From Myxococcales bacterium (GTDB lineage: Bacteria; Myxococcota_A; UBA9160; UBA4427), in the NCBI GenBank assembly GCA_022563535.1, contig JADFNE010000020.1, positions 4,040 to 68,039 of the forward strand: 64,000 nt of DNA. The letters run 5' to 3'. Shown here in pieces: positions 3,724-34,588 of this stretch; within the stretch, counting starts at the first letter, position 1, and each line of letters starts with the position of its first letter. The translations under genes and the position numbers were made by a program. The notes beneath the pieces are model-generated. The model ran no database searches, was not told the DNA's origin, and saw only the letters and a list, made by a program, of their open reading frames with translations.

Positions 3724-4524
3724 ATGACCGTGTTCGCCGACCTTCCGACCGATTGCCCCAGCGACTCGCCCGAAACTTCGAACGTACTCGAGTCCGCTCG
3801 CGATCTTTCCCATAATTACCGCCACGACCTTCCCCGCGAGCGTTTGCGTGCGCTGGGTGCCGAGGCGCTTGCCGATGCCGAGCTCGTTGCCCTCTTCCTG
3901 CGAACCGGGGGTGCCGGCAGAGATGCCCTCTCGCTCGCACGCTCGTTGCTCGCACGCTCTCGAGGATTGGCCGGCCTTACTCGCGTAACGTCCGCCACGA
4001 GTCGTGATTTATCGGGACTCGGCCCGGCCAAGCTCGCGAGTCTCGCAGCCGCAATTGAGTTGGGCCGGCGACTCCACGGGCGACGACTGGCCCCCGGCGA
4101 GCGCATGGGTGGGCCCGAAGAAATCTACCGTCATTTTCATCCTCGCCTGCGCGACTGCGAGCACGAACTCTTCATCGTGATCTTGTTGGATAGTCGACAC
4201 CGGATGCTGCGTGAGGAGAAAATTTCGCAAGGCACCCTTACCGCCAGCCTGGTGCACCCGCGCGAAGTGTTTCGCTCGGCGGTCCGCGACTCTGCGGCGG
4301 CAATGGTGCTGGTACACAACCACCCGAGCGGTGATCCGACGCCGAGCGCTGAAGACCGCGAGGTGACCCAGCGCCTAGCCAAAGCGGGGCGCATCATGGG
4401 TATTCGGATCCTGGACCACGTGGTGGTGGCCGAACGGGGTTACTTCAGCTTCTGCGAGGCCGGCGAACTTGCAAAGTCCCCCAGGGGCACCGGACTGGCA
4501 CCAAGTTTTGACACTGAAAACTAA
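3724..4524 (+). CDS. radC: RadC-like JAB/MPN domain protein (UPF0758)
   Basis: JAB motif LVHNHPSGDPTPSAEDREVTQRL and the upstream ELVALFLRTGGAGRDALSLARSLL segment are typical of RadC. Confidence 0.85.
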   Translation: MTVFADLPTDCPSDSPETSNVLESARDLSHNYRHDLPRERLRALGAEALADAELVALFLRTGGAGRDALSLARSLLARSRGLAGLTRVTSATSRDLSGLGPAKLASLAAAIELGRRLHGRRLAPGERMGGPEEIYRHFHPRLRDCEHELFIVILLDSRHRMLREEKISQGTLTASLVHPREVFRSAVRDSAAAMVLVHNHPSGDPTPSAEDREVTQRLAKAGRIMGIRILDHVVVAERGYFSFCEAGELAKSPRGTGLAPSFDTEN

Positions 4525-5006: not shown

Positions 5007-5039
5007 TCTACCCCGCTCTAGCAGCCCGTTGAAATATCC

Positions 5040-5078
5040 CAAAGAAAAGCCCCGACCGGGATTCCCCAGGTCAGGGCT
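5040..5078 (-). terminator. Candidate rho-independent terminator downstream of ssb (also between the convergent PilZ gene and ssb)
   Basis: Hairpin AGCCCCGACC-(11 nt loop)-GGTCAGGGCT at 5048-5078, 10 bp with one mismatch. On the minus strand it is followed by TTTTCTTT (5040-5047). Confidence 0.5.
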
Positions 5079-5133
5079 CGTCGAATGACTGACGGGCTAC
5101 CCCGTAGAGATGCCTGTATCTCCGTTCAGATCA

Positions 5134-5589
5134 CTAGAATGGAATGCCGCCATCGTCTGGAGGCGGGCCGCCGGAGCTATTGCCGGCATCGTCGCCCCTC
5201 GCTCCTCCACCGGGTCCGCCACTGGTTCCCCCCGCAGTACCTCCGCCGCTATCGCCTCGCGGACCGCCCAGGAACTGAACCGTGGTCGCGTTGATTTCGG
5301 TGGTTTGACGCTTCACGCCTTCTTTGTCTTCCCATTCCCGCGTCTGGAGCCGGCCCTCGATATAGACCGTGCGTCCCTTGGACAAGTACTGGGCGCACAG
5401 TTCTGCCGTCTTGGCCCAGGCCACGATGCGATGCCATTCGGTTTTATCGACGCGTTCGCCATTCTTGTCCGTCCAGGTTTCGCTGGTGGCCAGTGAAAAG
5501 TTGACGACCGCCTGACCGTTCTGCGTGTAGCGTAGTTCCGGGTCGCGCCCGAGATTGCCAATGAGAATTACTTTGTTGACACCTGCCAT
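5134..5589 (-). CDS. ssb: Single-stranded DNA-binding protein
   Basis: OB-fold start [48 protein letters not shown]. Gly-rich tail ending DDGGIPF. ATG at 5589. The 96 upstream codons in the ORF track are not SSB-like. Confidence 0.9.
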
Positions 5590-5981
5590 GTTGATCTCCG
5601 TCGGGACGTTCTGGGGGGAAATGTTGCGACCATGATTCCGTCCGAAACCTCGCACGTCAAGAGATTTGGACGGACGATTTCGAGAGCATTCGGCGGCGGG
5701 CGGGTCCGAAATCGTTGTGAATCGCAGTACGCTGTTTTGCGGTCGAGTGCCAATCGCGAGACCGATCGCCGCAAGCCGAGCCTCCACCTTGGAGCTGGGT
5801 AGTGCGGTTCGATCCTCCGGGGGCGAGCAGGTGGTGTAGATCGGCTTTGGCAGGCTGCTCAATTCTCTGCCTCTCAATTTCGCTTCGCGATGGCGTTCTC
5901 ATCCCTGTCCGATTAACCTCTGGACGTAGTTTCCTTTCCGGGGGGTGAGGGATCCATGGTCTTCCAATACTTCGGCTCTTT

Positions 5982-6085: not shown

Positions 6086-8563
6086 ATGGCTAGGGCGCGA
6101 TCCAAAAAGAAGGCTGCGGCCGGCGCAAGTACGTATGTCGCGCGAGTCACCAGTGAGGCGGCTGGCCTGGTGCTGGTGGGTTTTGGTTTGGTCGCTGCGT
6201 TGGCGCTCGGTACGTATTCTCCCGCCGATCCGATTTTTGCAATCGGCGAAGTGCACAATCGCATTGGGCCCCTGGGGGCCATGATCGCCGGATCGTTGAT
6301 CGGCCTGCTCGGCTACGGGGCGGGTATTGTGGTGGCTGCCGCCGCCTGGCTCGGCGGCCGGCTCCTGCTCGGGCACGGGATCCCAGAGGCGCGATCGCGT
6401 TTCTGGCCCAGCGGGATCCTGTTGTTGCTCGGCGCAACGACGCTTCCGTTGATCCTCCATCACCTGGCACCGGGGCGACTCGGGGCGCCGCTGGCCGGTC
6501 GCTTCGGCGAATTCCTGGTGTCCGGCGAAGAGATCTTGCTGGGAGAATGGGGTGCACTGCTGATCAGTTCCCTGATCCTGGTGCTCGGCGTACTGGGGTT
6601 GTTCGGAATTTCCGCGGGTAGGGCGCTGGCGGCCACGGCAACGGGATCCGCGTACGCCGGGCGCTATGCGGCCGACGCACTCGTTATATCGGCTGTGGCG
6701 GTCAAGCGCGTGCTGGAACCGATCGGAGCCGGGCTGGCGGGTTTTGCGAATTCGTTGGGTGAGCGCGTGAGTCGCCTGTCTCTGCGCGATGCGAGGCGCA
6801 ACCGGCGCCGGGTCGATGCGGACGGGGACCCGCAGTGGGCGACGGACGAGGAAGCCGACGAAGCGAGCGAGTCAGAGTGGGAAGACGACGAGGAGGAAGA
6901 GGAAGGCGACTGGGAGTACGAGGACGAAGAGGAGGAAGAAGACGCAGAACAAGCCCCGTCCCGCAACCGTAAAGCGTCCGAAGCTCCCTTCATTGTCGAC
7001 CACGATCGCGAACGGGAAGTAAACAAGAAGCCGAGCCAGGAAGCCTTCGAATTCAACGAAGACGGTCCCCACGGTCCGTATCAACATCCAGACATTTCGA
7101 TCTTTCATCGCCCGACCAAGATCGATTTGCAATTCGACCGCGACAGCCTGTTGATGAACTCGCGCATCCTCGAAAAGAAGCTGCTGGACTTTGGGGTCGA
7201 GGGACGGGTGGTTCGGGTGCATCCGGGCCCTGTGATCACGATGTACGAGTACGAACCCGGGCCGGGGGTCAAGGTCAACCGGATCGTCAATTTGACCGAC
7301 GATCTCGCGATGGCGTTGCGGGCAATTTCAATCCGAATCATTGCGCCGCTACCGGGCAAGTCCGTGGTGGGGATCGAGATTCCCAATGCCGAACGCGAAA
7401 CCGTGTATCTCCACCTGCTGCTCGATTCGGAAGCGTTTCGCAACAGCAAGTCTCCGCTCGAAGTCGCGATGGGGCACGACATCTTTGGCAACCCCGTCAC
7501 CTCGGACCTTGCGCGCATGCCGCATCTTCTGGTCGCGGGTGCGACCGGCACCGGGAAGAGCGTGTTTCTCAACGCCTTCCTGTGTTCGCTTCTGTGTCGG
7601 GCACGTCCCGATGAACTCAAACTTCTGCTCATCGATCCCAAGCTGCTCGAGCTGTCGGTCTACGAAGGGATTCCACATCTGATTGCCGACGTGGTCACGA
7701 GCCCCAAACGGGCCGCTGCGGCCCTTCAGGCGATCGTGCGCAAGATGGAAGACCGCTACCAACGCATGAGCGCGCTGCGAGTTCGCAATATCGTCCAGTT
7801 CAACGACAAGGTCGAAAGCGAGCTTGCCGCCGGCAATGAGACCTATCGCTTGCGAGCCAAGCCCGGCGAAGACGAAGGCGAAGAAGTCCGCTTCGAAAAG
7901 CTTCCGTACATCGTCGTGGTGATCGACGAACTCGCCGATCTCATGGTGATGGCGGCCAAAGACGTTGAAGAGTCCCTGCAGCGCCTCGCCCAGATGGCAC
8001 GGGCCGCAGGTATTCATCTAGTCCTCGCGACCCAGCGGCCGAGCGTCGACGTCCTGACCGGTGTCATCAAAGCCAATTTCCCCTCGCGGGTTTCGTTCCA
8101 GGTCTCCTCGGGGATCGATTCGAGAACGGTGCTCGATCAAAAGGGCGCGGAGAATCTTCTCGGCAATGGCGACATGCTCTTCATTCCGCCGGGTACATCG
8201 GTGGTGCGGCGCCTCCACGGTGCCTTCATCACCGAAAAAGAAGTCAATGAGCTGGTTGCCCACCTGCGCGACCAGGGGAAGCCCGTGTTTGATCAAGATC
8301 TAGTCAACATCCAATTTGAAACCGAATCTACAGATCGTTCGTCTAACGAAGATGTCGATGAAATGTTCGATCAAGCGGTCGCAATCGTGGTTGAGACTCG
8401 CAATGCCTCCATTTCCTACATCCAGCGGCGCCTCAAGGTCGGTTACAACCGAGCTGCGCGCATCATTGAAGAAATGGAGAACCAGGGGATGGTGGGTCCT
8501 CAGGTGGGAACGCGCTCCCGCGATGTATTTCTCCCCAGCGCCGATGCCGATCAATACGAATAA
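6086..8563 (+). CDS. ftsK: DNA translocase FtsK
   Basis: N-terminal TM helices, an acidic linker (EWEDDEEEEEGDWEYEDEEEEEDAE), a motor domain with Walker A GATGTGKS, and a C-terminal gamma winged helix (ISYIQRRLKVGYNRAARIIEEME). Confidence 0.95.
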   Translation: MARARSKKKAAAGASTYVARVTSEAAGLVLVGFGLVAALALGTYSPADPIFAIGEVHNRIGPLGAMIAGSLIGLLGYGAGIVVAAAAWLGGRLLLGHGIPEARSRFWPSGILLLLGATTLPLILHHLAPGRLGAPLAGRFGEFLVSGEEILLGEWGALLISSLILVLGVLGLFGISAGRALAATATGSAYAGRYAADALVISAVAVKRVLEPIGAGLAGFANSLGERVSRLSLRDARRNRRRVDADGDPQWATDEEADEASESEWEDDEEEEEGDWEYEDEEEEEDAEQAPSRNRKASEAPFIVDHDREREVNKKPSQEAFEFNEDGPHGPYQHPDISIFHRPTKIDLQFDRDSLLMNSRILEKKLLDFGVEGRVVRVHPGPVITMYEYEPGPGVKVNRIVNLTDDLAMALRAISIRIIAPLPGKSVVGIEIPNAERETVYLHLLLDSEAFRNSKSPLEVAMGHDIFGNPVTSDLARMPHLLVAGATGTGKSVFLNAFLCSLLCRARPDELKLLLIDPKLLELSVYEGIPHLIADVVTSPKRAAAALQAIVRKMEDRYQRMSALRVRNIVQFNDKVESELAAGNETYRLRAKPGEDEGEEVRFEKLPYIVVVIDELADLMVMAAKDVEESLQRLAQMARAAGIHLVLATQRPSVDVLTGVIKANFPSRVSFQVSSGIDSRTVLDQKGAENLLGNGDMLFIPPGTSVVRRLHGAFITEKEVNELVAHLRDQGKPVFDQDLVNIQFETESTDRSSNEDVDEMFDQAVAIVVETRNASISYIQRRLKVGYNRAARIIEEMENQGMVGPQVGTRSRDVFLPSADADQYE

Positions 8564-9359
8564 AAACCTCGCGCCGAGATCAACGCGGCTGCCATCGTGT
8601 TCCCGTTCTTGCGGGATACGGTCACTGCTGTCGGTGGTCGTAGCCGTTGCAGGTGTGTTCGTGCTGAGTTCTGTCGGATCGGGGTCGGAACTCGGAAACG
8701 ATGAAACGCCGTCGCGGGCTGGCTCTGCTGTGAAGCCGGTCGGAACCGAACCCTGCGCAGAACGGCTCGCGGCGGTCATTCAGGCCCACTACGAGTCCGT
8801 TGACGATTTCTCGGCGAACTTCCGACAGCGGACCCAGTCCGTCATGCTGGGCAAAGCGAGCCTCGGAGCGGATGCGCCGAGTACCGGCTTCGTTCAGTTC
8901 GCCAAGCCGGGCAAGATGCGTTGGCGCTACGAAACACCGGCAAAGAGCCTGGTGATCAGCGACGGCAAGATCCTTTGGATCTACGATCCCGAAGCCCGAG
9001 AGGCCCAGCGTCTACCGGTCACCGAGGGCTATTTGACCGGCGCGGTGCTCGAATTCTTGTTGGGGGAGGGCAAGATCCTCGACGAGTTCGAAGTCGAGGT
9101 TTCGTCTTGTGTTCCGGACGCCCAGGATGCGCTGGAACTCACACTGATTCCGAAAGAGCGCGCGAGCTACGAGTCCCTTGGACTGCGGGCCCACCGCTTG
9201 ACTGGCGAAATACTGGCCACCAGCCTGGTCGACCTGTTCGGCAACCGAACCGTCATTTCGTTTTCCGACACCCGAATCAATCTGCATCCGGATGCCTCGA
9301 CCTTCCGCTTTGAAATTCCCAGCAATGTTCAGGTCATAGACCTGGTCCCTGCGCCTTGA
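8544..9359 (+). CDS. lolA: Outer-membrane lipoprotein carrier protein LolA-like
   Basis: LolA-like core FRQRTQSVMLGK...GFVQFAKPGKMRWRYETPAKSLVISDGKILWIYDPE. Hydrophobic signal region SLLSVVVAVAGVFVL. Classical ftsK-lolA synteny. The start is uncertain: ATG 8544 overlaps the ftsK end, and the ORF-track start 8316 is rejected. Confidence 0.8.
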   Translation: MPINTNKNLAPRSTRLPSCSRSCGIRSLLSVVVAVAGVFVLSSVGSGSELGNDETPSRAGSAVKPVGTEPCAERLAAVIQAHYESVDDFSANFRQRTQSVMLGKASLGADAPSTGFVQFAKPGKMRWRYETPAKSLVISDGKILWIYDPEAREAQRLPVTEGYLTGAVLEFLLGEGKILDEFEVEVSSCVPDAQDALELTLIPKERASYESLGLRAHRLTGEILATSLVDLFGNRTVISFSDTRINLHPDASTFRFEIPSNVQVIDLVPAP

Positions 9360-9801
9360 ACCCAGTCGACGGGGTCCTCAGCTGTGCAGAATTTGTCGCA
9401 GTAGCTCGAGAGCGACACGCGGGGTGCACTGACTTGCCTTGAGTGGGCGAAATGGGTTCGCCACCGTACAAGCTGCGATGAAAATTGCAGTGCAGCTTGA
9501 ACGCAATGAACTGAGCGTTGATGATTCGACGCTCTCAGACAGAATTTCGCCGGTTCCCATGTGGAGCTGCAATAATTTGCGGCGGGAGTTGCAGACTTCT
9601 CGCGCGTTTTGTGGGGTGACAACGGAATGCGTGGTCGAGGGGGATGCGTGGAGCAGCGTACGTTTCCGATGAGCGTTTTGGTGAGGGGTCGTACGCCGAT
9701 CGCACGATATGGAACGGGAGTTCTCTTCTATAACGGCAGTTTAGCACGAACTTTGCTGCTTCACTTTGGTTGGCAGCCGGGAGATCGTGTTGATAAGATC
9801 T

Positions 9802-9819
9802 AAACTTGCAAAACTTGCA
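9802..9819. repeat. Tandem AAACTTGCA x2 (a third, degenerate unit follows)
   Basis: Read directly. Part of the TTGCA motif family in the 9360-10217 non-coding region. Confidence 0.7.
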
Positions 9820-9962
9820 AAACCTTCGGAATATCGTGGCGTTTGGTGACAACGACGCAACGGAGACCCGGGCGAGCGCGATTTGAGAGAACCCGCTCTG
9901 CGGCTGCGACATCCATCTGAGAGGAGTTGGGGTGTTCACAGTCGGACGCACAGTCTGTTCAG

Positions 9963-9992
9963 CAAGTTCGTTGCAACGAAACTTGCAATTGC
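9963..9992. promoter_or_regulatory. 23-bp near-palindrome CAAGTTCGTTGCAACGAAACTTG abutting the palindrome GCAATTGC; candidate activator (UAS) site
   Basis: The inverted symmetry was read directly (one nucleotide of asymmetry). It lies about 110-135 bp upstream of the sigma-54-type promoter at 10097-10112. Its function is inferred. Confidence 0.4.
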
Positions 9993-10096
9993 GTGCATGA
10001 ACACGCGAATATTCGAAGGCAGTTGTTCAGTAGCACCCCCCTGAACGTCCAATGCAGGAGGCAACAATGGGCAATGACGAGGCAACAAGCGTCCAG

Positions 10097-10112
10097 CGGC
10101 ACGCCCTTTGCA
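10097..10112 (+). promoter_or_regulatory. Sigma-54 (RpoN) type -24/-12 promoter candidate upstream of mpa
   Basis: cGGCACGccctTTGCAt matches the consensus TGGCACG-N4-TTGCW at every position except the first T. GG-to-GC spacing is correct. It lies about 105 nt upstream of the mpa GTG. Confidence 0.45.
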
Positions 10113-10217
10113 TTGGATCTCACCCAGCAGCTTGCCAACCACGCGTTAACCACGCAGTGACGACTACACAGATGTCGGCACTTACGGTTCGGGAACGCTG
10201 GACGAGGAGAGTGCTCA

Positions 10218-12080
10218 GTGAGCGATTATGATTCGGGATCAGGTTCTGGCTCAGGTTCAGGTCGAAAGGGCTTCGTTCGCGATGTAATGCGACGAATATC
10301 GCCCACGGGTTCGCGCTCTGGCGGCGACCCCAATTCGCCATTGGGTGGAGCCGAAGAACGCTCTTTCCAGAGTGAAGTCGAACAACTCCAGGATGCGATC
10401 CGCTTCTTCGGCAGCGACTCTCACGAGTTCCGACAGCGGCTCGATCGCGTTGTCTCCGATTATGAGTCTCTGCGACGGCGCTTCGACTCGTCGCGAGAGC
10501 AGATCCGCGAAGGCGAGACCCAGAACGAGAAGCTCGTCAACATGTTGCAGGAAGCCAAGCAACAGATTGAAGTGCTCAAGGAAGAGGTCGACAAACTCTG
10601 CGCACCGCCCAACACGTACGGTGTGTTTACGCGGCCGAACAAAGACGGAACCGCCGAAATCATCGTGGACGGGCGATCGATGCGCGTCAACGTTCACCCG
10701 AACCTCGATCCTTTCCAGCTCGAAGAAGGGCAGCTGGTTGTTCTGAACGAGGCGTTCAACGTCATCGAGCCGGCGGGCTATACCCAGCGCGGCGAGATTG
10801 CGTCTGTCGTAGAGGTGATTTCCGAGCATCGTTGTCTGGTAACGGGACACATGGATGACGAGCGCGTCGTCACCCTCGCCGAGCCACTCCGCAGCGAGAA
10901 GATCAACGTCGGCGATCACCTGATGATCGACACGCGGACCCAGTACGCCTTTGAAAAGATGCCGAAGTCTTCGGTCGAAGAGGTCATGCTGGAAGAGATT
11001 CCGGACGTTTCCTACGAAGAGATCGGTGGGCTCGGGGATCAGATCGAAGTCCTGCGCGACTCGGTGGAACTTCCTTACCTGTACCCCGAGATCTTTGCCG
11101 AGTTCGAGCTCAAGCCGCCGAAGGGGATCTTGCTCTACGGCCCGCCCGGTTGTGGCAAGACCATGATTGCGAAAGCGGTTGCCAACAGTCTTGCGCGCAA
11201 GATGGCGGAACGCACCGGTGAAACGACAACCGCCTACTTCCTCAACGTCAAGGGGCCGGAGCTGTTGAACAAGTACGTCGGCGAAACCGAAAGCAAGTTG
11301 CGCGAGGTCTTCAAGAAGGCCCGGGAAAAGGCGGCCGGTGCCAAGGTGCCCGTGGTGATCTTCTTTGATGAAATGGACTCGCTCTTCCGCATGCGGGGGT
11401 CGGGCATTTCCTCGGACATGGAAGCTACGGTTGTTGCCCAGTTCCTGTCGGAGATCGACGGCGTCGAGTCACTCGAGAACGTGATCGTGATCGGGGCGAG
11501 TAACCGCCAGGATCTGATCGACCCCGCCGTGTTGCGGCCAGGTCGCCTGGATCTCAAGGTCAAGGTGAGTCGCCCGGACGAAAAAGCCGCAAGGGAGATC
11601 TTCTCCAAGTACCTGACGGACAAACTGCCTATCGACCCGGAAGCGGTTGAAAAAGCGGATAGTGCTCAGGACGCTTGCGCCAAGATGATCGATGACCTGA
11701 TCAAGAAGATGTACTCGACCGGCGACGATAATAAGTTCCTCGAAGTCACCTACGCCAAGGGCGAGCGCGAGATCTTCTACTTCAAGGACTTCAGCAGTGG
11801 TGCGATGATCCAGAACATTGTTGCCCGGGCCAAGCGCAAGGCAGTCAAGCGGGCGATCGCGGGCGAGGTCCACGGCATCACCGCCGACGACTTGATGCTC
11901 TCGGTTTCTGAAGAATTCAAGGAGAACGAAGATCTCCCGAACACCACCAACCCAGACGATTGGGCGCGAATTTCCGGTCGCAAGGGTGAGCGAATCATCA
12001 ATGTCCGCACCTTGATTACTGGACTGGAACGCAAGGAGGCTACGATCGAGACCGTCCCAGGCTCAGGACAGTATCTCTGA
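10218..12080 (+). CDS. mpa: Proteasome-associated AAA+ ATPase Mpa/ARC
   Basis: GAGGAG SD 8 nt before the GTG. N-terminal coiled coil (EVEQLQDAIRFF...EVLKEEVDKL). Walker A GPPGCGKT, Walker B VVIFFDEMD. C-terminus ...GSGQYL, the GQYL proteasome-docking tail of Mpa. Confidence 0.95.
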   Translation: MSDYDSGSGSGSGSGRKGFVRDVMRRISPTGSRSGGDPNSPLGGAEERSFQSEVEQLQDAIRFFGSDSHEFRQRLDRVVSDYESLRRRFDSSREQIREGETQNEKLVNMLQEAKQQIEVLKEEVDKLCAPPNTYGVFTRPNKDGTAEIIVDGRSMRVNVHPNLDPFQLEEGQLVVLNEAFNVIEPAGYTQRGEIASVVEVISEHRCLVTGHMDDERVVTLAEPLRSEKINVGDHLMIDTRTQYAFEKMPKSSVEEVMLEEIPDVSYEEIGGLGDQIEVLRDSVELPYLYPEIFAEFELKPPKGILLYGPPGCGKTMIAKAVANSLARKMAERTGETTTAYFLNVKGPELLNKYVGETESKLREVFKKAREKAAGAKVPVVIFFDEMDSLFRMRGSGISSDMEATVVAQFLSEIDGVESLENVIVIGASNRQDLIDPAVLRPGRLDLKVKVSRPDEKAAREIFSKYLTDKLPIDPEAVEKADSAQDACAKMIDDLIKKMYSTGDDNKFLEVTYAKGEREIFYFKDFSSGAMIQNIVARAKRKAVKRAIAGEVHGITADDLMLSVSEEFKENEDLPNTTNPDDWARISGRKGERIINVRTLITGLERKEATIETVPGSGQYL

Positions 12081-12153
12081 GTCTGTGTTGCTCGTAGTAG
12101 GGATGTGCTGGTGAGAGAGCTTCATCTGCAAACCTTCGATCGGTGGATGAAGC

Positions 12154-13638
12154 ATGGCAACGCAGACCGTCATGGGGACAGAAATCGAATACGGGATCAC
12201 CGTCAAAAATGACCCCGATTTCGACCCGATCTCTAGCTGTGTCCTTCTGGTGAACGCCTACCGGGAGGACCCTGCTGGCGAGATTCTCTGGGACTACGAC
12301 CAGGAAAACCCACTCGCTGATGCCCGGGGGTTCCAGGTCGACGGCGAAAAGTACACGCCCAACCAGCAAGAAAATATCGCCCGCAACAAGACCCTGATCA
12401 ACGGCGCGCGCTACTACGTTGATCACGCCCATCCCGAGTATTCGAGTCCAGAAGTTACGAATGCCCGGGATCTCGTGATCCACGAAAAGGCCGGCGAGCG
12501 AGTGATCGAAGTGAGTCGCCGCGAGGCCAATTCGTTGTTGCCCGACGGCGCGAACATGCTCATCTACAAAAACAACAGCGATCGCAAGGGCAACAGCTAC
12601 GGCTGCCACGAAAACTATTTGATGGACCGACAGACGCCTTTCAAGCGGATCGTCGAACATCTGATGCCGTTCTTCGTGACGCGACAGGTATACGCCGGGG
12701 CAGGCAAAGTAGGCAGCGAGAACCGATCCCAGCCCTGCGACTACCAGATATCACAACGTGCGGACTTCTTCGAGGTCGAGGTCGCCCTGGACACCATGGT
12801 CAAGCGGCCCATCATCAACACGCGTGATGAGCCCCATGCCGATCGTGAGAAATACCGAAGACTTCACGTGATCATGGGCGACTCGAACATGAACGAGTAC
12901 ACGATCTACCTGCGCAACGGCGTAACCGCTCTTGTGGTCTCGATGATCGAAGACGGTGCGGTGCCAGACGGGCTGATCTTGCGAGATCCGGTCCGGGCCA
13001 TCAAGCAGGTATCCCACGATCCGAGCTGCAAGGTCGAACTGGCCATGGCAAACGGGAAAAAGATGACTGCCGTGCAGCTACAGTCCGAATATCTCGAGAG
13101 TGCGTTGCGATATACCACCGGTCGCACGATGGATCCGGTCGTCATGGACGTGCTCGAAAAGTGGCAGTACGTGCTAGAAGCTCTGGCACGTGATCCGATG
13201 GATCTCACACGTGAAATCGACTGGATCAGCAAAAAGGCGCTGATCGAGAGTTTCATGGAGCGAAAGAAACTCGATTGGCGAGACGCTCAGGTCCAAATGC
13301 TCGACCTGCAATATCATGATTCACGCCCAGAAAAAGGGCTGTATCACATGCTCGAGCGGCAAGGACGGGTCGAGCGCATTGTTACCGATGAAGAAATCGC
13401 CGCCGCGGTACACCAGCCACCCGAGGATACCCGGGCATATTTTCGCGGAGAGTGCCTGAGGCGCTACCCTACTGAAGTGTTTGGAGTGAATTGGGATTCG
13501 ATCTCGTTCGGTGTCGAGGATCAGCCGGTGAAGCGGATCATGATGTCCGAGCCGCTAAAGGGAACGCGCGCCCACGTAGAAGAGCTCCTGGACAGTGCGG
13601 ACAAAGCATCGGATTTGGTGCGAATGCTTCGTGCGTAG
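12154..13638 (+). CDS. dop: Pup deamidase/depupylase Dop
   Basis: MGTEIEYGI.., NGARYYVDHAHPEYSSPE, GNSYGCHENYLM, INTRDEPHAD..YRRLHVI, YFRGECLRRY. It is longer than the paralog at 15588, carries an extra segment after roughly residue 40, and is encoded next to pup. Confidence 0.9.
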   Translation: MATQTVMGTEIEYGITVKNDPDFDPISSCVLLVNAYREDPAGEILWDYDQENPLADARGFQVDGEKYTPNQQENIARNKTLINGARYYVDHAHPEYSSPEVTNARDLVIHEKAGERVIEVSRREANSLLPDGANMLIYKNNSDRKGNSYGCHENYLMDRQTPFKRIVEHLMPFFVTRQVYAGAGKVGSENRSQPCDYQISQRADFFEVEVALDTMVKRPIINTRDEPHADREKYRRLHVIMGDSNMNEYTIYLRNGVTALVVSMIEDGAVPDGLILRDPVRAIKQVSHDPSCKVELAMANGKKMTAVQLQSEYLESALRYTTGRTMDPVVMDVLEKWQYVLEALARDPMDLTREIDWISKKALIESFMERKKLDWRDAQVQMLDLQYHDSRPEKGLYHMLERQGRVERIVTDEEIAAAVHQPPEDTRAYFRGECLRRYPTEVFGVNWDSISFGVEDQPVKRIMMSEPLKGTRAHVEELLDSADKASDLVRMLRA

Positions 13639-13674
13639 TTGGGAATAGTTGGGAATAGTTGGTGTAGTCGGGTA
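13636..13674. repeat. Four tandem 9-10 bp units TAGTTGGGAA TAGTTGGGAA TAGTTGGTG TAGTCGGGTA, starting at the dop stop codon
   Basis: Read directly from the sequence. Confidence 0.75.
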
Positions 13675-13715
13675 CTGGAACTTCGATGAACGAACCACAA
13701 GCAAGGAACGGAAAC

Positions 13716-13988
13716 ATGGCTGTATTTATGACGAAGATCGGTGGCAACACGGCAAGCCGGCATCCCATCATCATGGCTGCGGAGAGTGGGCAGAAGCAGA
13801 AGAAGGGCGGCGGTGGCGGCGACGGCGATGGCGACGCTCCCGAGGCCAAGGGCGGCAGCAAGAAGATCGCCAAGAAGGGCAAGGATCTGAAAGAGGAAAT
13901 GGATGCTCTGGTGGAGGATATCGATGCCGTGCTCGAAGAGAACGCCGAGGAGTTCGTAAAGAATTACGTCCAGCGCGGAGGGCAATAG
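13716..13988 (+). CDS. pup: Prokaryotic ubiquitin-like protein Pup
   Basis: C-terminal half DALVEDIDAVLEENAEEFVKNYVQRGGQ is near-identical to the mycobacterial Pup C-terminus and ends GGQ. Gly/Asp-rich disordered N-terminal part. The start is ambiguous: ATG 13716 has an AAGGAA SD, ATG 13773 gives a canonical ~71-aa Pup (MAAESGQKQKKGGGGGDGD..), and 13686 is the longest ORF. Confidence 0.9.
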   Translation: MAVFMTKIGGNTASRHPIIMAAESGQKQKKGGGGGDGDGDAPEAKGGSKKIAKKGKDLKEEMDALVEDIDAVLEENAEEFVKNYVQRGGQ

Positions 13989-14027
13989 CCGCCAGCGTTG
14001 GCTCACTCTGAAACCAGATAGGGGGGA

Positions 14028-14831
14028 TTGGTGCTCATCAGAGGTACGTATCAAGGGTCGAGTTTTTGGGAGTATCTGCAGGCTGACCAGCCAGCGCTAC
14101 TACCAGACTTTTCACCGTGGGACAGTTCTTCGGAAGCCAGTATTCCGCATGGGACGACCGTGTTGGCGTTCAAGTATGTGGACGGTGTCCTGGTTGCTGG
14201 CGACCGATTGGCGACCGAGGGACATCGCGTTGCTTCACGTGACGTCGAAAAAGTCTTTACGACCGACTCACATTCACTGATGGCAATTTCAGGTGCCGCG
14301 GGTCCGTGCATCGAGATGGGCAAGATTCTCTCGGTCGAGCTCGAACACTACGAGAAGATCGAGGGTGAGGCCCTGGAACTCGAGGGCAAGGCGAACAAGC
14401 TCGGCCAGATGATCCGCCAAAACCTTCCGGCAGCGATGCAGGGCCTGGTCGTGGTTCCGTTGTTTGCTGGATACGACTTGAGACGCAACGCCGGACGCCT
14501 CTGGAAGTACGACATTACCGGCGGGCGCTACGAAGAGACCGAGTTCGAGGCCACGGGCTCCGGCGGGCTGTACGCCAACGAATCTCTGAGGAAAAGTTGG
14601 CGCGCGGACCTGACCGCCGATGAGGCGATCGCCGTCACGGTAACGGCACTCACGGATGCCGCGGATCAAGACCGCGCGACCGGGGGCGTGGATCTCCAGC
14701 GAAGGATCTTTCCCATCATATGCCTGGCGACCGAGGAGCGCATTCGGCGCGTAGAAGATCATGAGATCGAGAGAATCTATCGCGCTCTGGTCGAAGAGCG
14801 GACGGTTGCCGCCGGAGGAAACAGCCGATGA
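14028..14831 (+). CDS. prcB: 20S proteasome beta subunit PrcB
   Basis: Propeptide followed by a G/T junction, ...SIPHG-TTVLAFKYVDGVLVAGDRLATEG (Ntn-hydrolase Thr1). Confidence 0.95.
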   Translation: MVLIRGTYQGSSFWEYLQADQPALLPDFSPWDSSSEASIPHGTTVLAFKYVDGVLVAGDRLATEGHRVASRDVEKVFTTDSHSLMAISGAAGPCIEMGKILSVELEHYEKIEGEALELEGKANKLGQMIRQNLPAAMQGLVVVPLFAGYDLRRNAGRLWKYDITGGRYEETEFEATGSGGLYANESLRKSWRADLTADEAIAVTVTALTDAADQDRATGGVDLQRRIFPIICLATEERIRRVEDHEIERIYRALVEERTVAAGGNSR

Positions 14832-15526
14832 CAATGCCATTCTACGTATCACCTGAACAGGTGATGGCCGACAAGGCCGAATTTGCCCGCAAGGGGATCG
14901 CGCGGGGCAAGTCCATCGTGGCCCTCGAATACGACACCGGTGTGCTCCTGATCGCGGAGAATGCGACCAGCCTTTCGAAGGTTGGCGAAATCTACGACCG
15001 CATCGCCTTCGCGGGCGTTGGCAAGTTCAGCGAGTTCGACATGCTTCGGAAGATTGGCGTGCGTTTTGCCGATTCGCGCGGGTACGCCTACAGCCGGGAG
15101 GATGTTCGCGGCAAGGCGCTGGCCAACGCCTACTCCCAGGCGGTCGGCGAGGCATTCACCCGTGAGATGAAACCGCTCGAAGTCGAACTGATCGTGGCCG
15201 AAGTCGGAGACGACAGCCTGGTGGGACATGAACACAATTGTCTGTACCGCGTGAAGTTCGACGGCTTCATCAGCGATCACAAGGGATTTTGTGTGATCGG
15301 GGGTAACGTCGATGATGTCCAAAGCGTATTGGAAGGCGACTATCGGGAAGGCATGACCCAAGGGGAAGTCGTAAATTTGGGGCTGAAGGCCCTCACGCGT
15401 GGGGCCAGCGACAACAGCACCCTCGATGCGACCACCCTGGAAGTCTGTATCTTGGATCGAACCCGCACCGGGCGCAAGTTTACTCGCCTGTCGGCCGATA
15501 TAGTACAGACTATGCTAGGCGAGTAG
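14828..15526 (+). CDS. prcA: 20S proteasome alpha subunit PrcA
   Basis: ATGA overlap with prcB. The N-terminus MTMPFYVSPEQVMADKAEFARKGIARGKS is characteristic of bacterial PrcA. Confidence 0.95.
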   Translation: MTMPFYVSPEQVMADKAEFARKGIARGKSIVALEYDTGVLLIAENATSLSKVGEIYDRIAFAGVGKFSEFDMLRKIGVRFADSRGYAYSREDVRGKALANAYSQAVGEAFTREMKPLEVELIVAEVGDDSLVGHEHNCLYRVKFDGFISDHKGFCVIGGNVDDVQSVLEGDYREGMTQGEVVNLGLKALTRGASDNSTLDATTLEVCILDRTRTGRKFTRLSADIVQTMLGE

Positions 15527-15587
15527 GTGAGCATTCGGCCCGCCTAGTTCGTCCAATGGCGAAATGAGTCGTCGGTAGCGAGAGCGA

Positions 15588-16994
15588 GTGCAGAAGCGAA
15601 TCTACGGGATAGAAACGGAGTACGGAATCATCTTTACGCCGGAAGGGCGCAAGACCCTGCCGGTGGAAAAGGCGATCCGATTTCTATTCGAGAAGCTGAT
15701 CACCACCGAGCATTTTCTAAACGTCTTCCTGGAAAATGGCGCGAGGTTCTACCAGGACACGGGATGCCATCCCGAGTACGCCACACCCGAATGTTCCTCT
15801 CCGAGACAGGTCGCGATGTACGACCGGGCGGGTGAGCGGATCCTCGAAGACCTCCAGAACTACGCCGAAGAAAAGATTCGCGAAGAGCGTATCCCGGGCA
15901 AGCTCTCGATCTTCAAGAACAATACGGACTTCGTCGGCAACAGCTATGGCTGCCACGAGAACTACCTCGTGGATCGAGATGTCGATTTCTACTATCTCGC
16001 CGAACAGTTGATCCCGTTCCTGGTGACCCGCCAGATCTTCACCGGGGCCGGCAAGGTATTTCAGACCCAGGACGGTGTGCACTACTGCGTGAGCCAGCGT
16101 GCGCAGCACATCTATCAGAAGATTTCGGGCACCACGACCAATGATCGCTCGATCATCAACACCCGGGACGAACCCCACGCGGATCGCGAAAAGTATCGCC
16201 GCCTGCACGTGATCGTGGGCGATTCGAACATGAGCGGGTACACGAACTTCTTGAAGGTCGCGACCTGCTCGATCGTCTTGCAGATGATCGAAGACAACTT
16301 CATCAACAAGGACTTCACGCTGCGCAACCCCGTGAAGGCCATCAAGGACATCACCTACGACGTCACCTGCAAGCGGAAACTTCGCCTCGACAACGGACGA
16401 GAATGTTCGCCCATCGACATCCAGCGCGAATACTGCGAGATGGCTCAGAAGTACTGTGAGCAGTACCCCGTCGACGACGAGCACAAAGACGCCGTAACGA
16501 AATGGCAGTATGTCCTCGATTGTCTGGCGGACGATCCGCGCAAGCTCGACCGCCAAGTCGACTGGGTGATCAAGCGACGCATGATCGAGGCCTATATCGA
16601 CAAAACGGGATGTTCCTGGAACGATCCGAAGGTCTTCATGATGGATCTGCAGTACCACGACATCCAGCGCAAGCGGAGCCTGTACTATCTGCTCGAGCGC
16701 GCCGGTGCCGTCGAGCGGGAGTTTACCGACGAAGACGTCGAGAAGGCCAAGGATACGCCGCCTCCGGATACGCGCGCGCGCATGCGAGGTGAGTTCATCA
16801 AACTGGCCCGTGAGCATTCGATCCAGTACGACCTCGACTGGTCGAACATCAGGCTGGGCAACCTGCTCAACGTCAGGGTGATCTGCAACAACCCCTTCGA
16901 AAACGACATCGAGAAGGTAGCTGAGCTCGTGCGCACCATTCAGAAGACGAACCTGCGCAAGACCAGCCTTTCGAAACTCGTCATCCAGTCCTGA
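15588..16994 (+). CDS. pafA: Pup-protein ligase PafA
   Basis: MQKRIYGIETEYGIIF.., NGARFYQDTGCHPEYATPECSS, GNSYGCHENYLV, INTRDEPHADREKYRRLHVI. It lacks the Dop-type insertion. Confidence 0.9.
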   Translation: MQKRIYGIETEYGIIFTPEGRKTLPVEKAIRFLFEKLITTEHFLNVFLENGARFYQDTGCHPEYATPECSSPRQVAMYDRAGERILEDLQNYAEEKIREERIPGKLSIFKNNTDFVGNSYGCHENYLVDRDVDFYYLAEQLIPFLVTRQIFTGAGKVFQTQDGVHYCVSQRAQHIYQKISGTTTNDRSIINTRDEPHADREKYRRLHVIVGDSNMSGYTNFLKVATCSIVLQMIEDNFINKDFTLRNPVKAIKDITYDVTCKRKLRLDNGRECSPIDIQREYCEMAQKYCEQYPVDDEHKDAVTKWQYVLDCLADDPRKLDRQVDWVIKRRMIEAYIDKTGCSWNDPKVFMMDLQYHDIQRKRSLYYLLERAGAVEREFTDEDVEKAKDTPPPDTRARMRGEFIKLAREHSIQYDLDWSNIRLGNLLNVRVICNNPFENDIEKVAELVRTIQKTNLRKTSLSKLVIQS

Positions 16995-17129: not shown

Positions 17130-17585
17130 GTGGCGACCCACATGGTCCGACCCGTGCTCGTACCCGACTCCGTACCAGCAGAACTGAACGCACCCGAATC
17201 CGGGGATGCTTCCGAATCGATCTCACCCGAGCCGCAATCCCCACAACCGGCCGGATCGAGCACGAATTCCGAAGCCCGAAAAAACAGCCGTGTGCTCGTT
17301 GTCGTATTGGCGATTGCGCTGTTGGCAACAGGGTTGGCCCTGGTCGAGCAATCCCGCAGGGCGGCGTTGCTGGAGAGTGAAATTGTGGTGCTCGAAGCCG
17401 AAGTTACAGCGGCAGCGTCCGCGGTAGAGGCCTATCAGATTCGCTTTGAGCAGGTGCGGGGTGAGGTGGGCGCCCTGGTGTCGAGAGTTGGGGCGCTGCG
17501 TAGTCTGGTGGAGCCTGACGTGGTTCCAGCGGGCTTGTCGGGCAGCGAAAGCGTTGTTGCCCCGGAACCCGCTTCCAGCGACTAG
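17130..17585 (+). CDS. Hypothetical bitopic membrane protein with a coiled-coil ectodomain
   Basis: Pro/Ser-rich N-terminus, one TM helix (VLVVVLAIALLATGLALV), then heptad-like LLESEIVVLEAEVTAAASAVEAYQIRFEQVRGEVGALVSRV. No family recognised. Alternative ATG at 17142. Confidence 0.5.
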   Translation: MATHMVRPVLVPDSVPAELNAPESGDASESISPEPQSPQPAGSSTNSEARKNSRVLVVVLAIALLATGLALVEQSRRAALLESEIVVLEAEVTAAASAVEAYQIRFEQVRGEVGALVSRVGALRSLVEPDVVPAGLSGSESVVAPEPASSD

Positions 17586-33631: not shown

Positions 33632-34441
33632 TCAGTTCGTTGCCGCGATTCTCTCGGACGCCAGTTTCGCTGTGTCCGATTTTGGATAGTTGGCGACGAC
33701 GACATGGAACAACCTTCGGGCCTCGTCGCGTCGCATCATGTTCTCGTAACAGACCCCGAGCTTGTAGAGGACCTCGGCGTCGAGTCCGAGTCCCGGGTAG
33801 ACATTGAGCACCGTGCGATAGCGCTCGGCAGCAGCTTGAAACTCATCCCTCTTCATGTAGAAGTCGCCCATCTGCATCATGTTGCGCGAAAGGCGAGTGC
33901 GCAGGTCCCGCAGCATCGCTTCGCCCTTCCGGGTCTCGAGCGCGTAGGGGTGCTCTCGGATCAGAATCTCGAGATAGATCTGCGCTTCCCGGGTCGCGGT
34001 CTGGTCCCGGTTGATCGAGCGGATTTGTTCGTAGTGACACAGCGCCGAGCGGAGCACCGTATACGGCACTTTTTCGTGTTGGGGGTGGAGGTCGGAAAAG
34101 GACCGGTAGTACGACAGCGCGTCGTCGTAGCGTCGGTTATCGAAGTAGGCGTCTGCGATTCGCAGCTCGGCCTGGACCGCAAGTTCGTGATACGGATAGT
34201 TGTCGATGATCGTCTGGAACGTTTCGATCGCCTCGTCGTAGTCGACGACGGTGAACCAAATGTAGGCGCGCTTTCCCTTCAGGATCTCGAGGCCCTTCTC
34301 GTACAATTCCTCAGCGGGTGCCACTTCGACAAAAAGCGGCGGTCTTTCCCTGCAGGAAGACCCAAAAGCGAGCAGGAGCGCAAGTGTGGCCCACACCCAG
34401 ATTTTACTTCGAGGTGAGACCCCGGATCGGTGGTATTGCAT
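33632..34441 (-). CDS. bamD: Outer membrane protein assembly factor BamD (YfiO-like TPR lipoprotein)
   Basis: Lipobox LLAFGSSC. BamD-like AEELYEKGLEILK...AIETFQTIIDNYPYHELAVQAELRIADAYF...GDFYMKRDEFQAAAERYRTVL. Start is ATG 34441 (alternative TTG 34477). Confidence 0.85.
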   Translation of the reverse strand: MQYHRSGVSPRSKIWVWATLALLLAFGSSCRERPPLFVEVAPAEELYEKGLEILKGKRAYIWFTVVDYDEAIETFQTIIDNYPYHELAVQAELRIADAYFDNRRYDDALSYYRSFSDLHPQHEKVPYTVLRSALCHYEQIRSINRDQTATREAQIYLEILIREHPYALETRKGEAMLRDLRTRLSRNMMQMGDFYMKRDEFQAAAERYRTVLNVYPGLGLDAEVLYKLGVCYENMMRRDEARRLFHVVVANYPKSDTAKLASERIAATN

Positions 34442-34588
34442 TTTGAAACCTTTCTCTGGCCGCGGGAGGGAGGTCAAATCACAAATCCTCTCGCGGCGGG
34501 TTCAATCTGCTAGGCTACTGGCCGCAGGTTTTCGGTTCCCTGCATGTTCAAGGTGAACCCCGCGGAATCATTCAGTGTTCTGCATATC

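Follow-up and report, generated by a model that had tools for sequence, protein, structure and literature searches.

The DNA analyzed here is a 64,000-nucleotide stretch of a Myxococcales genome, referred to as the window throughout its full length, and the subject is a six-gene Pup-proteasome locus together with the regulatory region that precedes it. Six consecutive open reading frames (ORFs) on the positive strand, in the order mpa-dop-pup-prcB-prcA-pafA, match the family models expected for them with E-values from 1e-13 to 1e-220 (Table 1). The original prediction had proposed a complete module of these six genes, and searches of each ORF against Pfam and against NCBIfam equivalog models with curated cut-offs bear this out. 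The intergenic distances, from mpa through pafA, are 73, 77, 39, -4, and 61 nt; the short gaps that had been proposed are present, and of the proposed 4-nt overlaps only the one between prcB and prcA exists.

Table 1. Genes and predicted regulatory features of the Pup-proteasome locus, in window coordinates
Feature	Coordinates	Strand	Description	Family model
Distal sigma-70-type promoter, predicted	9770..9799	+	-35 TTGGCA, 18-nt spacer, -10 TAAGAT, upstream TG	
Primary-sequence block, ~45 nt	9818..9848	+	consensus AAAA-N4-cG.aAtTtCgagaGGTTCg.cG; just downstream of the sigma-70 promoter	
Sigma-54 (RpoN) -24/-12 promoter, predicted	10097..10112	+	CGGCACGCCCTTTGCA; ~105 nt before the mpa GTG	
mpa/arc	10218..12080	+	620 aa; coiled coil, two OB domains, AAA, C-terminal GQYL	TIGR03689
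dop	12154..13638	+	494 aa; Pup deamidase/depupylase with Dop-loop	TIGR03688
pup	13716..13988	+	90 aa; ends GGQ	PF05639, TIGR03687
prcB	14028..14831	+	20S beta subunit, 42-aa propeptide; TTG start	TIGR03690
prcA	14828..15526	+	232 aa; 20S alpha subunit	TIGR03691
pafA	15588..16994	+	468 aa; Pup ligase, no Dop-loop	TIGR03686

Five of the six proteins pass their NCBIfam equivalog cut-offs, PafA being the exception, and individual residues were checked by alignment to solved structures of Mpa, Dop, PafA, the 20S subunits, and Pup. Mpa scores 732 bits on TIGR03689 (cut-off 505), contains the Pfam OB_N, OB_C, and AAA domains with the Walker A motif GPPGCGKT, and ends ...GSGQYL. It aligns with Mycobacterium tuberculosis Mpa at 647 bits over residues 35–609, from the coiled coil through the terminal GQYL, but lacks an insertion of ~17 residues that the mycobacterial protein has in the OB region. 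Among relatives, defined as the best 80 loci when each species was represented by a single genome, the tail is GQYL in 75 and GQYV in four. Dop reaches 591 bits on TIGR03688 (cut-off 492), aligns over its full length with Acidothermus Dop (4b0r; 552 bits), Dop-loop included, and keeps the catalytic aspartate of the DHAHPEYS motif that is equivalent to Acidothermus D94. PafA matches PF03136 at 508 bits and scores 404 bits on the Dop model, 140 bits less than on the PafA model; aligned with Corynebacterium glutamicum PafA, it shows no loop insertion and retains the aspartate equivalent to D64 (Asn in the 4bjr construct). Both the model scores and the presence or absence of the loop agree with the proposal that the longer enzyme is Dop-like and the shorter one PafA.

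The core particle is similarly well preserved. PrcB scores 295 bits on TIGR03690 (cut-off 192), and its junction ...IPHG/TTVLAF places Thr1 at T43, Asp17 at D59, and Lys33 at K75, with T43 aligned to the first residue of the mature beta chains of Rhodococcus and M. tuberculosis; the HG/TT junction is kept in relatives. PrcA begins MTMPFYVSPEQ, scores 289 bits on TIGR03691 (cut-off 139), and aligns from residue 1 with M. tuberculosis PrcA (210 bits). All of the motifs on which the original prediction relied, from the Walker A sequence to the Pup tail, are thus seen in the sequence and in the alignments. Decay of the system, which would show as loss of PrcB Thr1 or of the Dop and PafA active-site residues, finds no support, as these residues are retained. 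As judged from the alignments, the catalytic and docking residues of all components are intact, and none has been lost.

Some database records of these genes read differently. The PafA of this lineage carries the NCBI name "proteasome accessory factor PafA2 family protein" because its score falls just below the TIGR03686 cut-off; PafA2 is an old name of Dop, and the label is hence misleading for this ligase. On a same-species scaffold from the ENA (L001), the recorded prcB call at 5007–5675, which corresponds to window positions 14163–14831, is 222 residues long and starts past Thr1. This call would remove the propeptide and the catalytic threonine, both of which are restored by the full ORF from the TTG at 14028. 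No mpa is called on the same scaffold, and a 220-residue antisense ORF is called in its place, because a run of N (~2874–2973) lies inside the gene; loss of mpa in L001 was rejected, as the gap explains it. The protein cluster of P0094 (90% identity) holds 232-residue proteasome alpha subunits together with 462-residue PafA proteins, a mixture probably caused by fused prcA-pafA gene calls, and the 635-residue product P0088 may be a similar fused call.

Pup scores 62.5 bits on PF05639 and 49.2 bits on TIGR03687 (cut-off 41.45), aligns with residues 6–66 of M. tuberculosis Pup, and is nearly identical to it over the C-terminal 30 residues. Its C-terminus, ...EEFVKNYVQRGGQ, ends in GGQ. The tag is therefore of the canonical type that had been proposed, as the scores on both models confirm, and the argument that a terminal glutamine makes deamidation by Dop obligatory is sound for this window. 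The start of pup is placed at the ATG at 13716, the ORF being formally open from 13686, because a Shine–Dalgarno sequence precedes this ATG and is conserved across relatives; the same start is called on two other assemblies. Compared with the 64-residue mycobacterial Pup, the 90-residue window protein carries an N-terminal extension of ~20 residues (window positions 13716–13775), and in many relatives the "mycobacterial" position offers no start codon. Related Pups are mostly 83–100 residues long, with a 67-residue form at eight loci. Their extension is poorly conserved, often begins MARF.., and ends in an h-P-I-Y-like motif.

Variation at the opposite end of Pup is confined almost entirely to the last residue. 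Across 82 related sequences it is glutamine in 36 (codon 13986–13988 in the window) and glutamate in 46, while the 18 residues preceding it are essentially invariant; VLEENAEEFVKNYVQRGG, which stands before the last residue, shows a single exception, EQN for EEN. This alternation implies that the need for deamidation by Dop flips repeatedly, as in Actinobacteria. The dop gene is kept everywhere in the clade, whether Pup ends in Gln or Glu, and at the level of gene content this universal retention is consistent with a depupylase role. Positions 13637–13672, between the stop codon of dop and pup, hold an imperfect short tandem repeat, TAGTTGGGAA TAGTTGGGAA TAGTTGGTG TAGTCGGG.

Judged from gene content and protein matches, the host is an uncultured diderm lineage of Myxococcota. 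The diderm assignment follows from the LolA and BamD proteins encoded in the window (lolA, 8316–9359; bamD/YfiO, 33632–34477 on the negative strand). Of the diderm genes listed in the original prediction, these two are present, and the LolB-like protein could not be confirmed among the ~55 window ORFs run against Pfam. The window PafA is 100% identical to MCH7600369.1 and MCH7867721.1, both from "Myxococcales bacterium" metagenome-assembled genomes (MAGs), and the 80 best loci all belong to Myxococcota or "Deltaproteobacteria" MAGs, apart from a few labeled Spirochaetales. In the scan that returned these loci, their Dop was 73–88% identical to that of the window. The contig is thus not actinobacterial, in agreement with the host originally proposed. 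The exceptions (L008, L025, L035, L052, L053, L062, L065, L066, L072, L077, and L080) were deposited as "uncultured Spirochaetales" or "Spirochaetaceae"; their entire lolA-proteasome-mreB neighborhood matches the Myxococcota clade, and the labels probably reflect a taxonomy-mapping error in the records.

The locus has a fixed place in the chromosome of this clade. Searches with the window proteins by tblastn recover the order lolA, a gap of 0.7–1 kb, mpa-dop-pup-prcB-prcA-pafA, and then mreB at essentially all of the 80 loci with a long enough contig. Because the source is a MAG, and because the same-species scaffold L001 has its N-gap in mpa, an actinobacterial fragment joined to a Myxococcota contig during assembly or binning could be considered. 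Such an artefact is exceedingly improbable, as the same lolA and mreB junctions recur in dozens of independent assemblies, closed chromosomes of 4.5–6.2 Mb included (OZ252299.1, OZ245015.1, and OZ245002.1), an exact copy of the block occurs in two further ENA assemblies, and codon usage is uniform.

Sequence conservation within the clade points to strong constraint. Identity to the window is 81–95% for PafA, 72–88% for Dop, 68–88% for Mpa, 57–84% for PrcA, and 49–83% for PrcB. The most conserved gene of the module is pafA, and comparison with MreB (mostly 73–92%) indicates that the ligase is constrained at least as much as this neighbor. Ratios of nonsynonymous to synonymous substitution (dN/dS), calculated for the window genes against three relatives with dS saturated, are 0.02–0.23 for all six genes, 0.02–0.055 for pafA, and 0.044 for MreB. 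A far more distant relative, L084 (GCA_037446715.1), carries the same six genes with FtsK-LolA upstream and MltG-RuvX ... HEAT-PgpA-CinA-RecA downstream. Its PafA is 65% identical to that of the window, and its housekeeping proteins are 25–68% identical, with MltG, CinA, and FtsK at 40–52%. That L084 shares this neighborhood despite its divergence implies that the module has occupied the site since before the two lineages split. The synteny and sequence comparisons together suggest that the lineage has long carried the module in its core genome and inherited it vertically; the module appears not to have been recently imported.

The contrary view, that the operon was recently acquired from Actinobacteria and is a sporadic passenger and not a trait of the lineage, has precedent. 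Occurrences of the system outside Actinobacteria have been ascribed to transfer from that phylum (PMC7947786, PMC3511204). The gene order is also identical to that of Actinobacteria, and the total GC content of the block (0.56–0.58) is slightly below that of its surroundings (~0.61). This deficit, however, sits in codon positions 1 and 2. The comparison of codon usage and third-position GC content (GC3) that had been proposed finds 0.68–0.80 for the six genes and 0.63–0.77 for the flanks, and GC3 of the block is indistinguishable from that of the flanks. Occupation of one chromosomal site in ~80 species and in the distant L084 also argues against recent import, as does the host-type sigma-54 promoter described below. 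The original prediction described occurrence outside Actinobacteria as sporadic, which does not hold for this lineage, where the module sits at one conserved site in ~80 species-level genomes.

The relationship to other Pup-proteasome lineages bears on the same question. The best PafA relatives outside the clade are those of Candidatus Moduliflexus flocculans (61%) and of Nitrospinota MAGs and Candidatus Entotheonellia (62–65%), and the closest actinobacterial cluster, from Ilumatobacteraceae (Acidimicrobiia), reaches 48%. Taken in gene order, the six window proteins are 61, 60, 60, 54, 57, and 63% identical to those of a Nitrospinota-type contig (L083), and 54, 52, 41, 45, 46, and 48% identical to those of a named actinobacterial reference, Nonomuraea gerenzanensis (NZ_LT559118.1; L085/L086). 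Named actinobacterial proteins are therefore more distant for all six components. A neighbor-joining tree was built from taxonomically named PafA and Dop sequences only, each paralog rooting the other; it includes four actinobacterial PafAs (Acidimicrobiia, Nonomuraea, and two Corynebacterium) and two actinobacterial Dops. For PafA, bootstrap support is 100% for a diderm clade, 100% for an actinobacterial clade, and 0% for a grouping of the diderm sequences with Acidimicrobiia, and the Dop half of the tree shows the same split. In neither half do the window sequences nest inside the actinobacterial radiation, a provisional result in view of the neighbor-joining method and the thin sampling.

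Provisionally, then, the window proteins form a clade with those of Nitrospinota, Ca. Entotheonellia, and Ca. Moduliflexus; the Actinobacteria that were sampled are its sister group. The tree is weak, and what it argues against is an origin within these sampled Actinobacteria. The term "actinobacterial-type" used in the original prediction fits the architecture and gene order, but not the sequences, which belong to this separate clade. Recent transfer from Actinobacteria is, on balance, improbable; a transfer long ago, at the base of the diderm clade, may have occurred. Tectomicrobia, Nitrospinota, and Gemmatimonadota also have more divergent "PafA2 family" ligases, which fall outside the window clade as well as the actinobacterial one and may belong to divergent-tag systems. 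A further neighbor-joining tree of 99 unnamed representatives, in which diderm lineages lie basal to Actinobacteria, was set aside as prone to long-branch attraction. Plasmid-borne copies were also discarded as evidence of mobility, since there are two matches only and one is a Nonomuraea replicon filed as a plasmid. This entry (PLSDB "plasmid I", NZ_LT559118.1, 11.85 Mb, N. gerenzanensis) holds the chromosomal Pup-proteasome genes of the species, with insertions of 5–6 kb that separate mpa from dop and pup from prcB.

Compared with the mycobacterial and other actinobacterial systems, the window locus has the full set of six components and agrees in gene order and in catalytic and docking residues, with a near-identical Pup C-terminal helix. 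It differs in its diderm Myxococcota host and in the separate clade to which its sequences belong. Among other diderm loci, those of Nitrospinota MAGs, Entotheonellia, and Moduliflexus are closest in sequence (PafA 61–65%, Dop ~60%, Mpa ~61%). The Nitrospinota-type L083 has an identical six-gene order, but its flanking genes are unrelated. It also carries a third Pup-ligase-family gene nearby (13642–15009, negative strand; 455 residues, 54% identical to window PafA), ~3 kb downstream of the canonical operon and among Fe-S and redox genes.

UBact-type systems are Pup-related conjugation systems with a proteasome in diderm bacteria. In contrast to those of Gram-negative phyla, the window tag passes PF05639 and TIGR03687 and ends in GGQ. 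Pup has been found "sporadically" in deltaproteobacteria, the example being Plesiocystis pacifica, whose ligase is membrane-anchored through four inserted transmembrane segments and is not linked to genes for a proteasome (Iyer et al. 2008, PMC2588565). Plesiocystis shares with the window its phylum, a Pup-like tag, and a PafA-family ligase; the window ligase, unlike that of Plesiocystis, is of the canonical soluble kind and shares its operon with the proteasome and Mpa genes. Proteasomes outside Actinobacteria have been described as a few sporadic cases, such as Nitrospirae, and ascribed to transfer from Acidimicrobiales (Barandun et al. 2012, PMC3511204); a Nitrospirae locus known from the literature is that of Leptospirillum. 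An origin in Actinobacteria followed by transfer, including to "Proteobacteria" and Nitrospinae, has also been proposed (Hecht et al., PMC7947786). No literature joining pupylation or the 20S proteasome with Myxococcota was found in the searchable library. The kind of system and its occurrence in "Proteobacteria" are thus known; its clade-wide syntenic occurrence is not described in the literature searched.

The 860 bp between lolA and mpa cannot be aligned beyond the closest relatives, yet two conserved islands lie inside this gap. The proximal one is a predicted sigma-54 promoter oriented toward mpa, whose GG and GC stand 10 nt from each other as in the extended consensus TGGCACG-N4-TTGCW. 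A relaxed sigma-54 pattern is present ahead of mpa at 69 of the 72 loci surveyed, where the background rate is 0.023 per 480 nt, and a tight pattern, GGCA[CT][GA]-N4-TTGC[AT], recovers all 69 anchors and one other place in 1.13 Mb searched on both strands (2.25 Mb). The 40 nt on either side of the element carry almost no information. In relatives it usually lies ~77 nt before the mpa start codon; in the window the predicted transcription start near 10123 would give mpa a 5' untranslated region (UTR) of ~95 nt. No other good site of the sigma-54 type exists in the window: two further matches, at 3935 and 9742, were rejected because they do not have the GG, and the number of matches over the whole window does not exceed chance. 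The element was not detected upstream of mpa in L083 or L084. A sigma-54-type promoter had been listed in the original prediction as a trait of the diderm host; it is present, but is apparently the promoter of the module itself.

The distal island begins with a predicted sigma-70-type promoter. Scored out of 12 at 69 loci, the pattern TTGACA-N16-TAnnnT reaches at least 9 at 59 of them, and the reverse-strand control never exceeds 8. The promoter lies 173–616 nt upstream of the sigma-54 site across loci and ~330 nt upstream in the window. Directly after its -10 element, the window has a local duplication, AAACTTGCA AAACTTGCA AAAC (9803–9822), which is window-specific and present as one copy in relatives. 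The primary-sequence block that follows the promoter may be an operator or the start of a leader with a conserved 5' end. As a structured RNA it was rejected, since RNAalifold predicts no pairs on 59 sequences, and Rfam returns nothing in 9340–10240 at E<=1. Tblastx shows no conserved ORF, which removes a small protein gene in the block or the gap as a candidate. A small RNA ending before the sigma-54 site was also rejected, with terminator-like hairpins at eight of 59 loci against 12 of 59 in the reverse-strand control. Inside the operon, no terminators were found above chance. The most economical reading of this pattern is that two promoters act in tandem, the distal one of the sigma-70 type and accompanied by an operator-like site, the proximal one of the sigma-54 type.

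A sigma-54 promoter stays silent unless an enhancer-binding ATPase activates it, and Actinobacteria are not known to have sigma-54. The conserved element, together with this requirement, implies signal-dependent control of the operon in the lineage. Transcription is most likely signal-gated through the predicted sigma-54 promoter, which would set the lineage apart from mycobacteria, where no condition has been reported to change transcription of the corresponding genes (2025 minireview, PMC12288473). Nitrogen starvation is a condition in which the Mycobacterium smegmatis system matters (PMC8223512). A link between the putative sigma-54 control and nitrogen starvation, a classical sigma-54 theme, is suggestive but speculative.

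Taken together, the locus is very probably a functional Pup-proteasome operon of diderm Myxococcota, old, vertically inherited, on a separate diderm branch, and apparently signal-gated. Several observations weigh against this reading. PafA scores 543.5 bits on TIGR03686, 8 bits short of the cut-off of 551.3. The accessory factors PafBC (WYL regulators), Bpa/PafE, and PAC2 are absent from the ~55 window ORFs searched with Pfam, so that, in contrast to actinobacterial loci, no pafBC stands beside pafA and neither Bpa nor PAC2 is encoded in the window. The lineage is uncultured and known from MAGs only. The phylogeny relies on neighbor joining with few named taxa, includes only Acidimicrobiia among the deep actinobacterial classes, and may be subject to long-branch effects. 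With regard to the promoter, its first base, before GG, is C where the canonical base is T. Neither rpoN nor a bacterial enhancer-binding protein (bEBP) with GAFTGA and Walker A motifs is encoded in the window or the available Myxococcota flanks, and a k-mer enrichment search for a shared upstream activator site returned only GC-rich words.

The last three points would also fit a different explanation, in which the GGCAC-N5-TTGCA element is the binding site of another regulator and the operon is driven by the sigma-70 promoter alone, a strong promoter upstream with no terminator in between. This is unlikely, as the element matches the sigma-54 architecture exactly, in the 10-nt spacing of GG and GC and in its extended GGCACG and TTGCA halves, and just these positions are conserved; its orientation and the resulting UTR of 50–140 nt also fit a promoter. 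Signal-gated transcription from a sigma-54 promoter remains the preferred account. A broader proposal joins this control to the phylogeny. The system would not have been invented in Actinobacteria and scattered from there, but would have an old, separately evolving diderm branch, sister to the actinobacterial one and comprising Myxococcota, Nitrospinota, Entotheonellia, and Moduliflexus; in Myxococcota it would have become an operon gated by a sigma-54/bEBP activator, for example in response to nitrogen or nutrient starvation. As a joint claim, this is tentative and rather doubtful.

To judge from the promoter motifs, transcription from the sigma-54 promoter would need RpoN and an enhancer-binding ATPase, and the sigma-70 promoter probably supplies basal read-through expression. 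The mechanism of the gene products is taken from the mycobacterial system by homology. Dop would deamidate the C-terminal glutamine of Pup to glutamate, and PafA, with ATP, would activate this residue by phosphorylation and join it to lysine residues on target proteins. Pup would then be captured by the Mpa hexamer through its coiled coils, and the disordered N-terminus of Pup would be threaded into the pore, with the GQYL tail of Mpa docked on the PrcA ring. Thr1 of PrcB, once freed by autocatalytic loss of the 42-residue propeptide, would cut the substrates, and Dop would also remove and recycle Pup.

Intact proteins do not by themselves require this degradative route. The system might serve mainly regulatory, non-degradative pupylation, or the 20S core might work with Pup-independent activators. 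In Corynebacterium, pupylation proceeds without degradation and affects iron storage (PMC8223512), and the membrane-anchored Pup ligase of Plesiocystis operates without a proteasome (PMC2588565). There is, however, only a slim chance that this applies here, since lineages without proteasome genes lose the Mpa tail (PMC3511204), which is kept as GQYL in most relatives, and since prcB and prcA lie within the operon with their 4-nt overlap and are under purifying selection.

The remainder of the window is largely housekeeping in character. It encodes an extracytoplasmic function (ECF) sigma/anti-sigma pair, RadC, SSB, FtsK, LolA, MreB, MltG, RuvX, PgpA, CinA, RecA, a PilT-like ATPase, AlaS, IspG, BamD (YfiO), IspE, Prs, ribosomal proteins S6 and L9, DnaB, a Mur ligase, and an Opp-type transporter. 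Between pafA and mreB, a 151-residue ORF (17130–17585) is predicted to contain a membrane helix and shows a segment, rich in Ala, Glu, and Val, that resembles a coiled coil; it has no Pfam match and is weakly conserved (32–37%) in a minority of relatives.

Teaching usually presents bacterial proteasomes as a specialty of Actinobacteria, and knowledge of them is almost all mycobacterial. On the strength of the sequence comparisons, what sets this locus apart is the conserved putative sigma-54 promoter, newly described here, the clade-wide vertical inheritance of the operon in a diderm phylum, and its provisional placement on a non-actinobacterial branch. With a syntenic and constrained operon in ~80 species-level genomes, this uncultured Myxococcota lineage provides a second independent evolutionary sample of this machinery, and an operon of such distribution weakens the picture of sporadic recent transfer. 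If the operon is indeed activator-dependent, it could reveal the signal to which the Pup-proteasome system answers; were that signal nitrogen starvation, for example, its transcription would be tied to the physiology in which the mycobacterial system matters.

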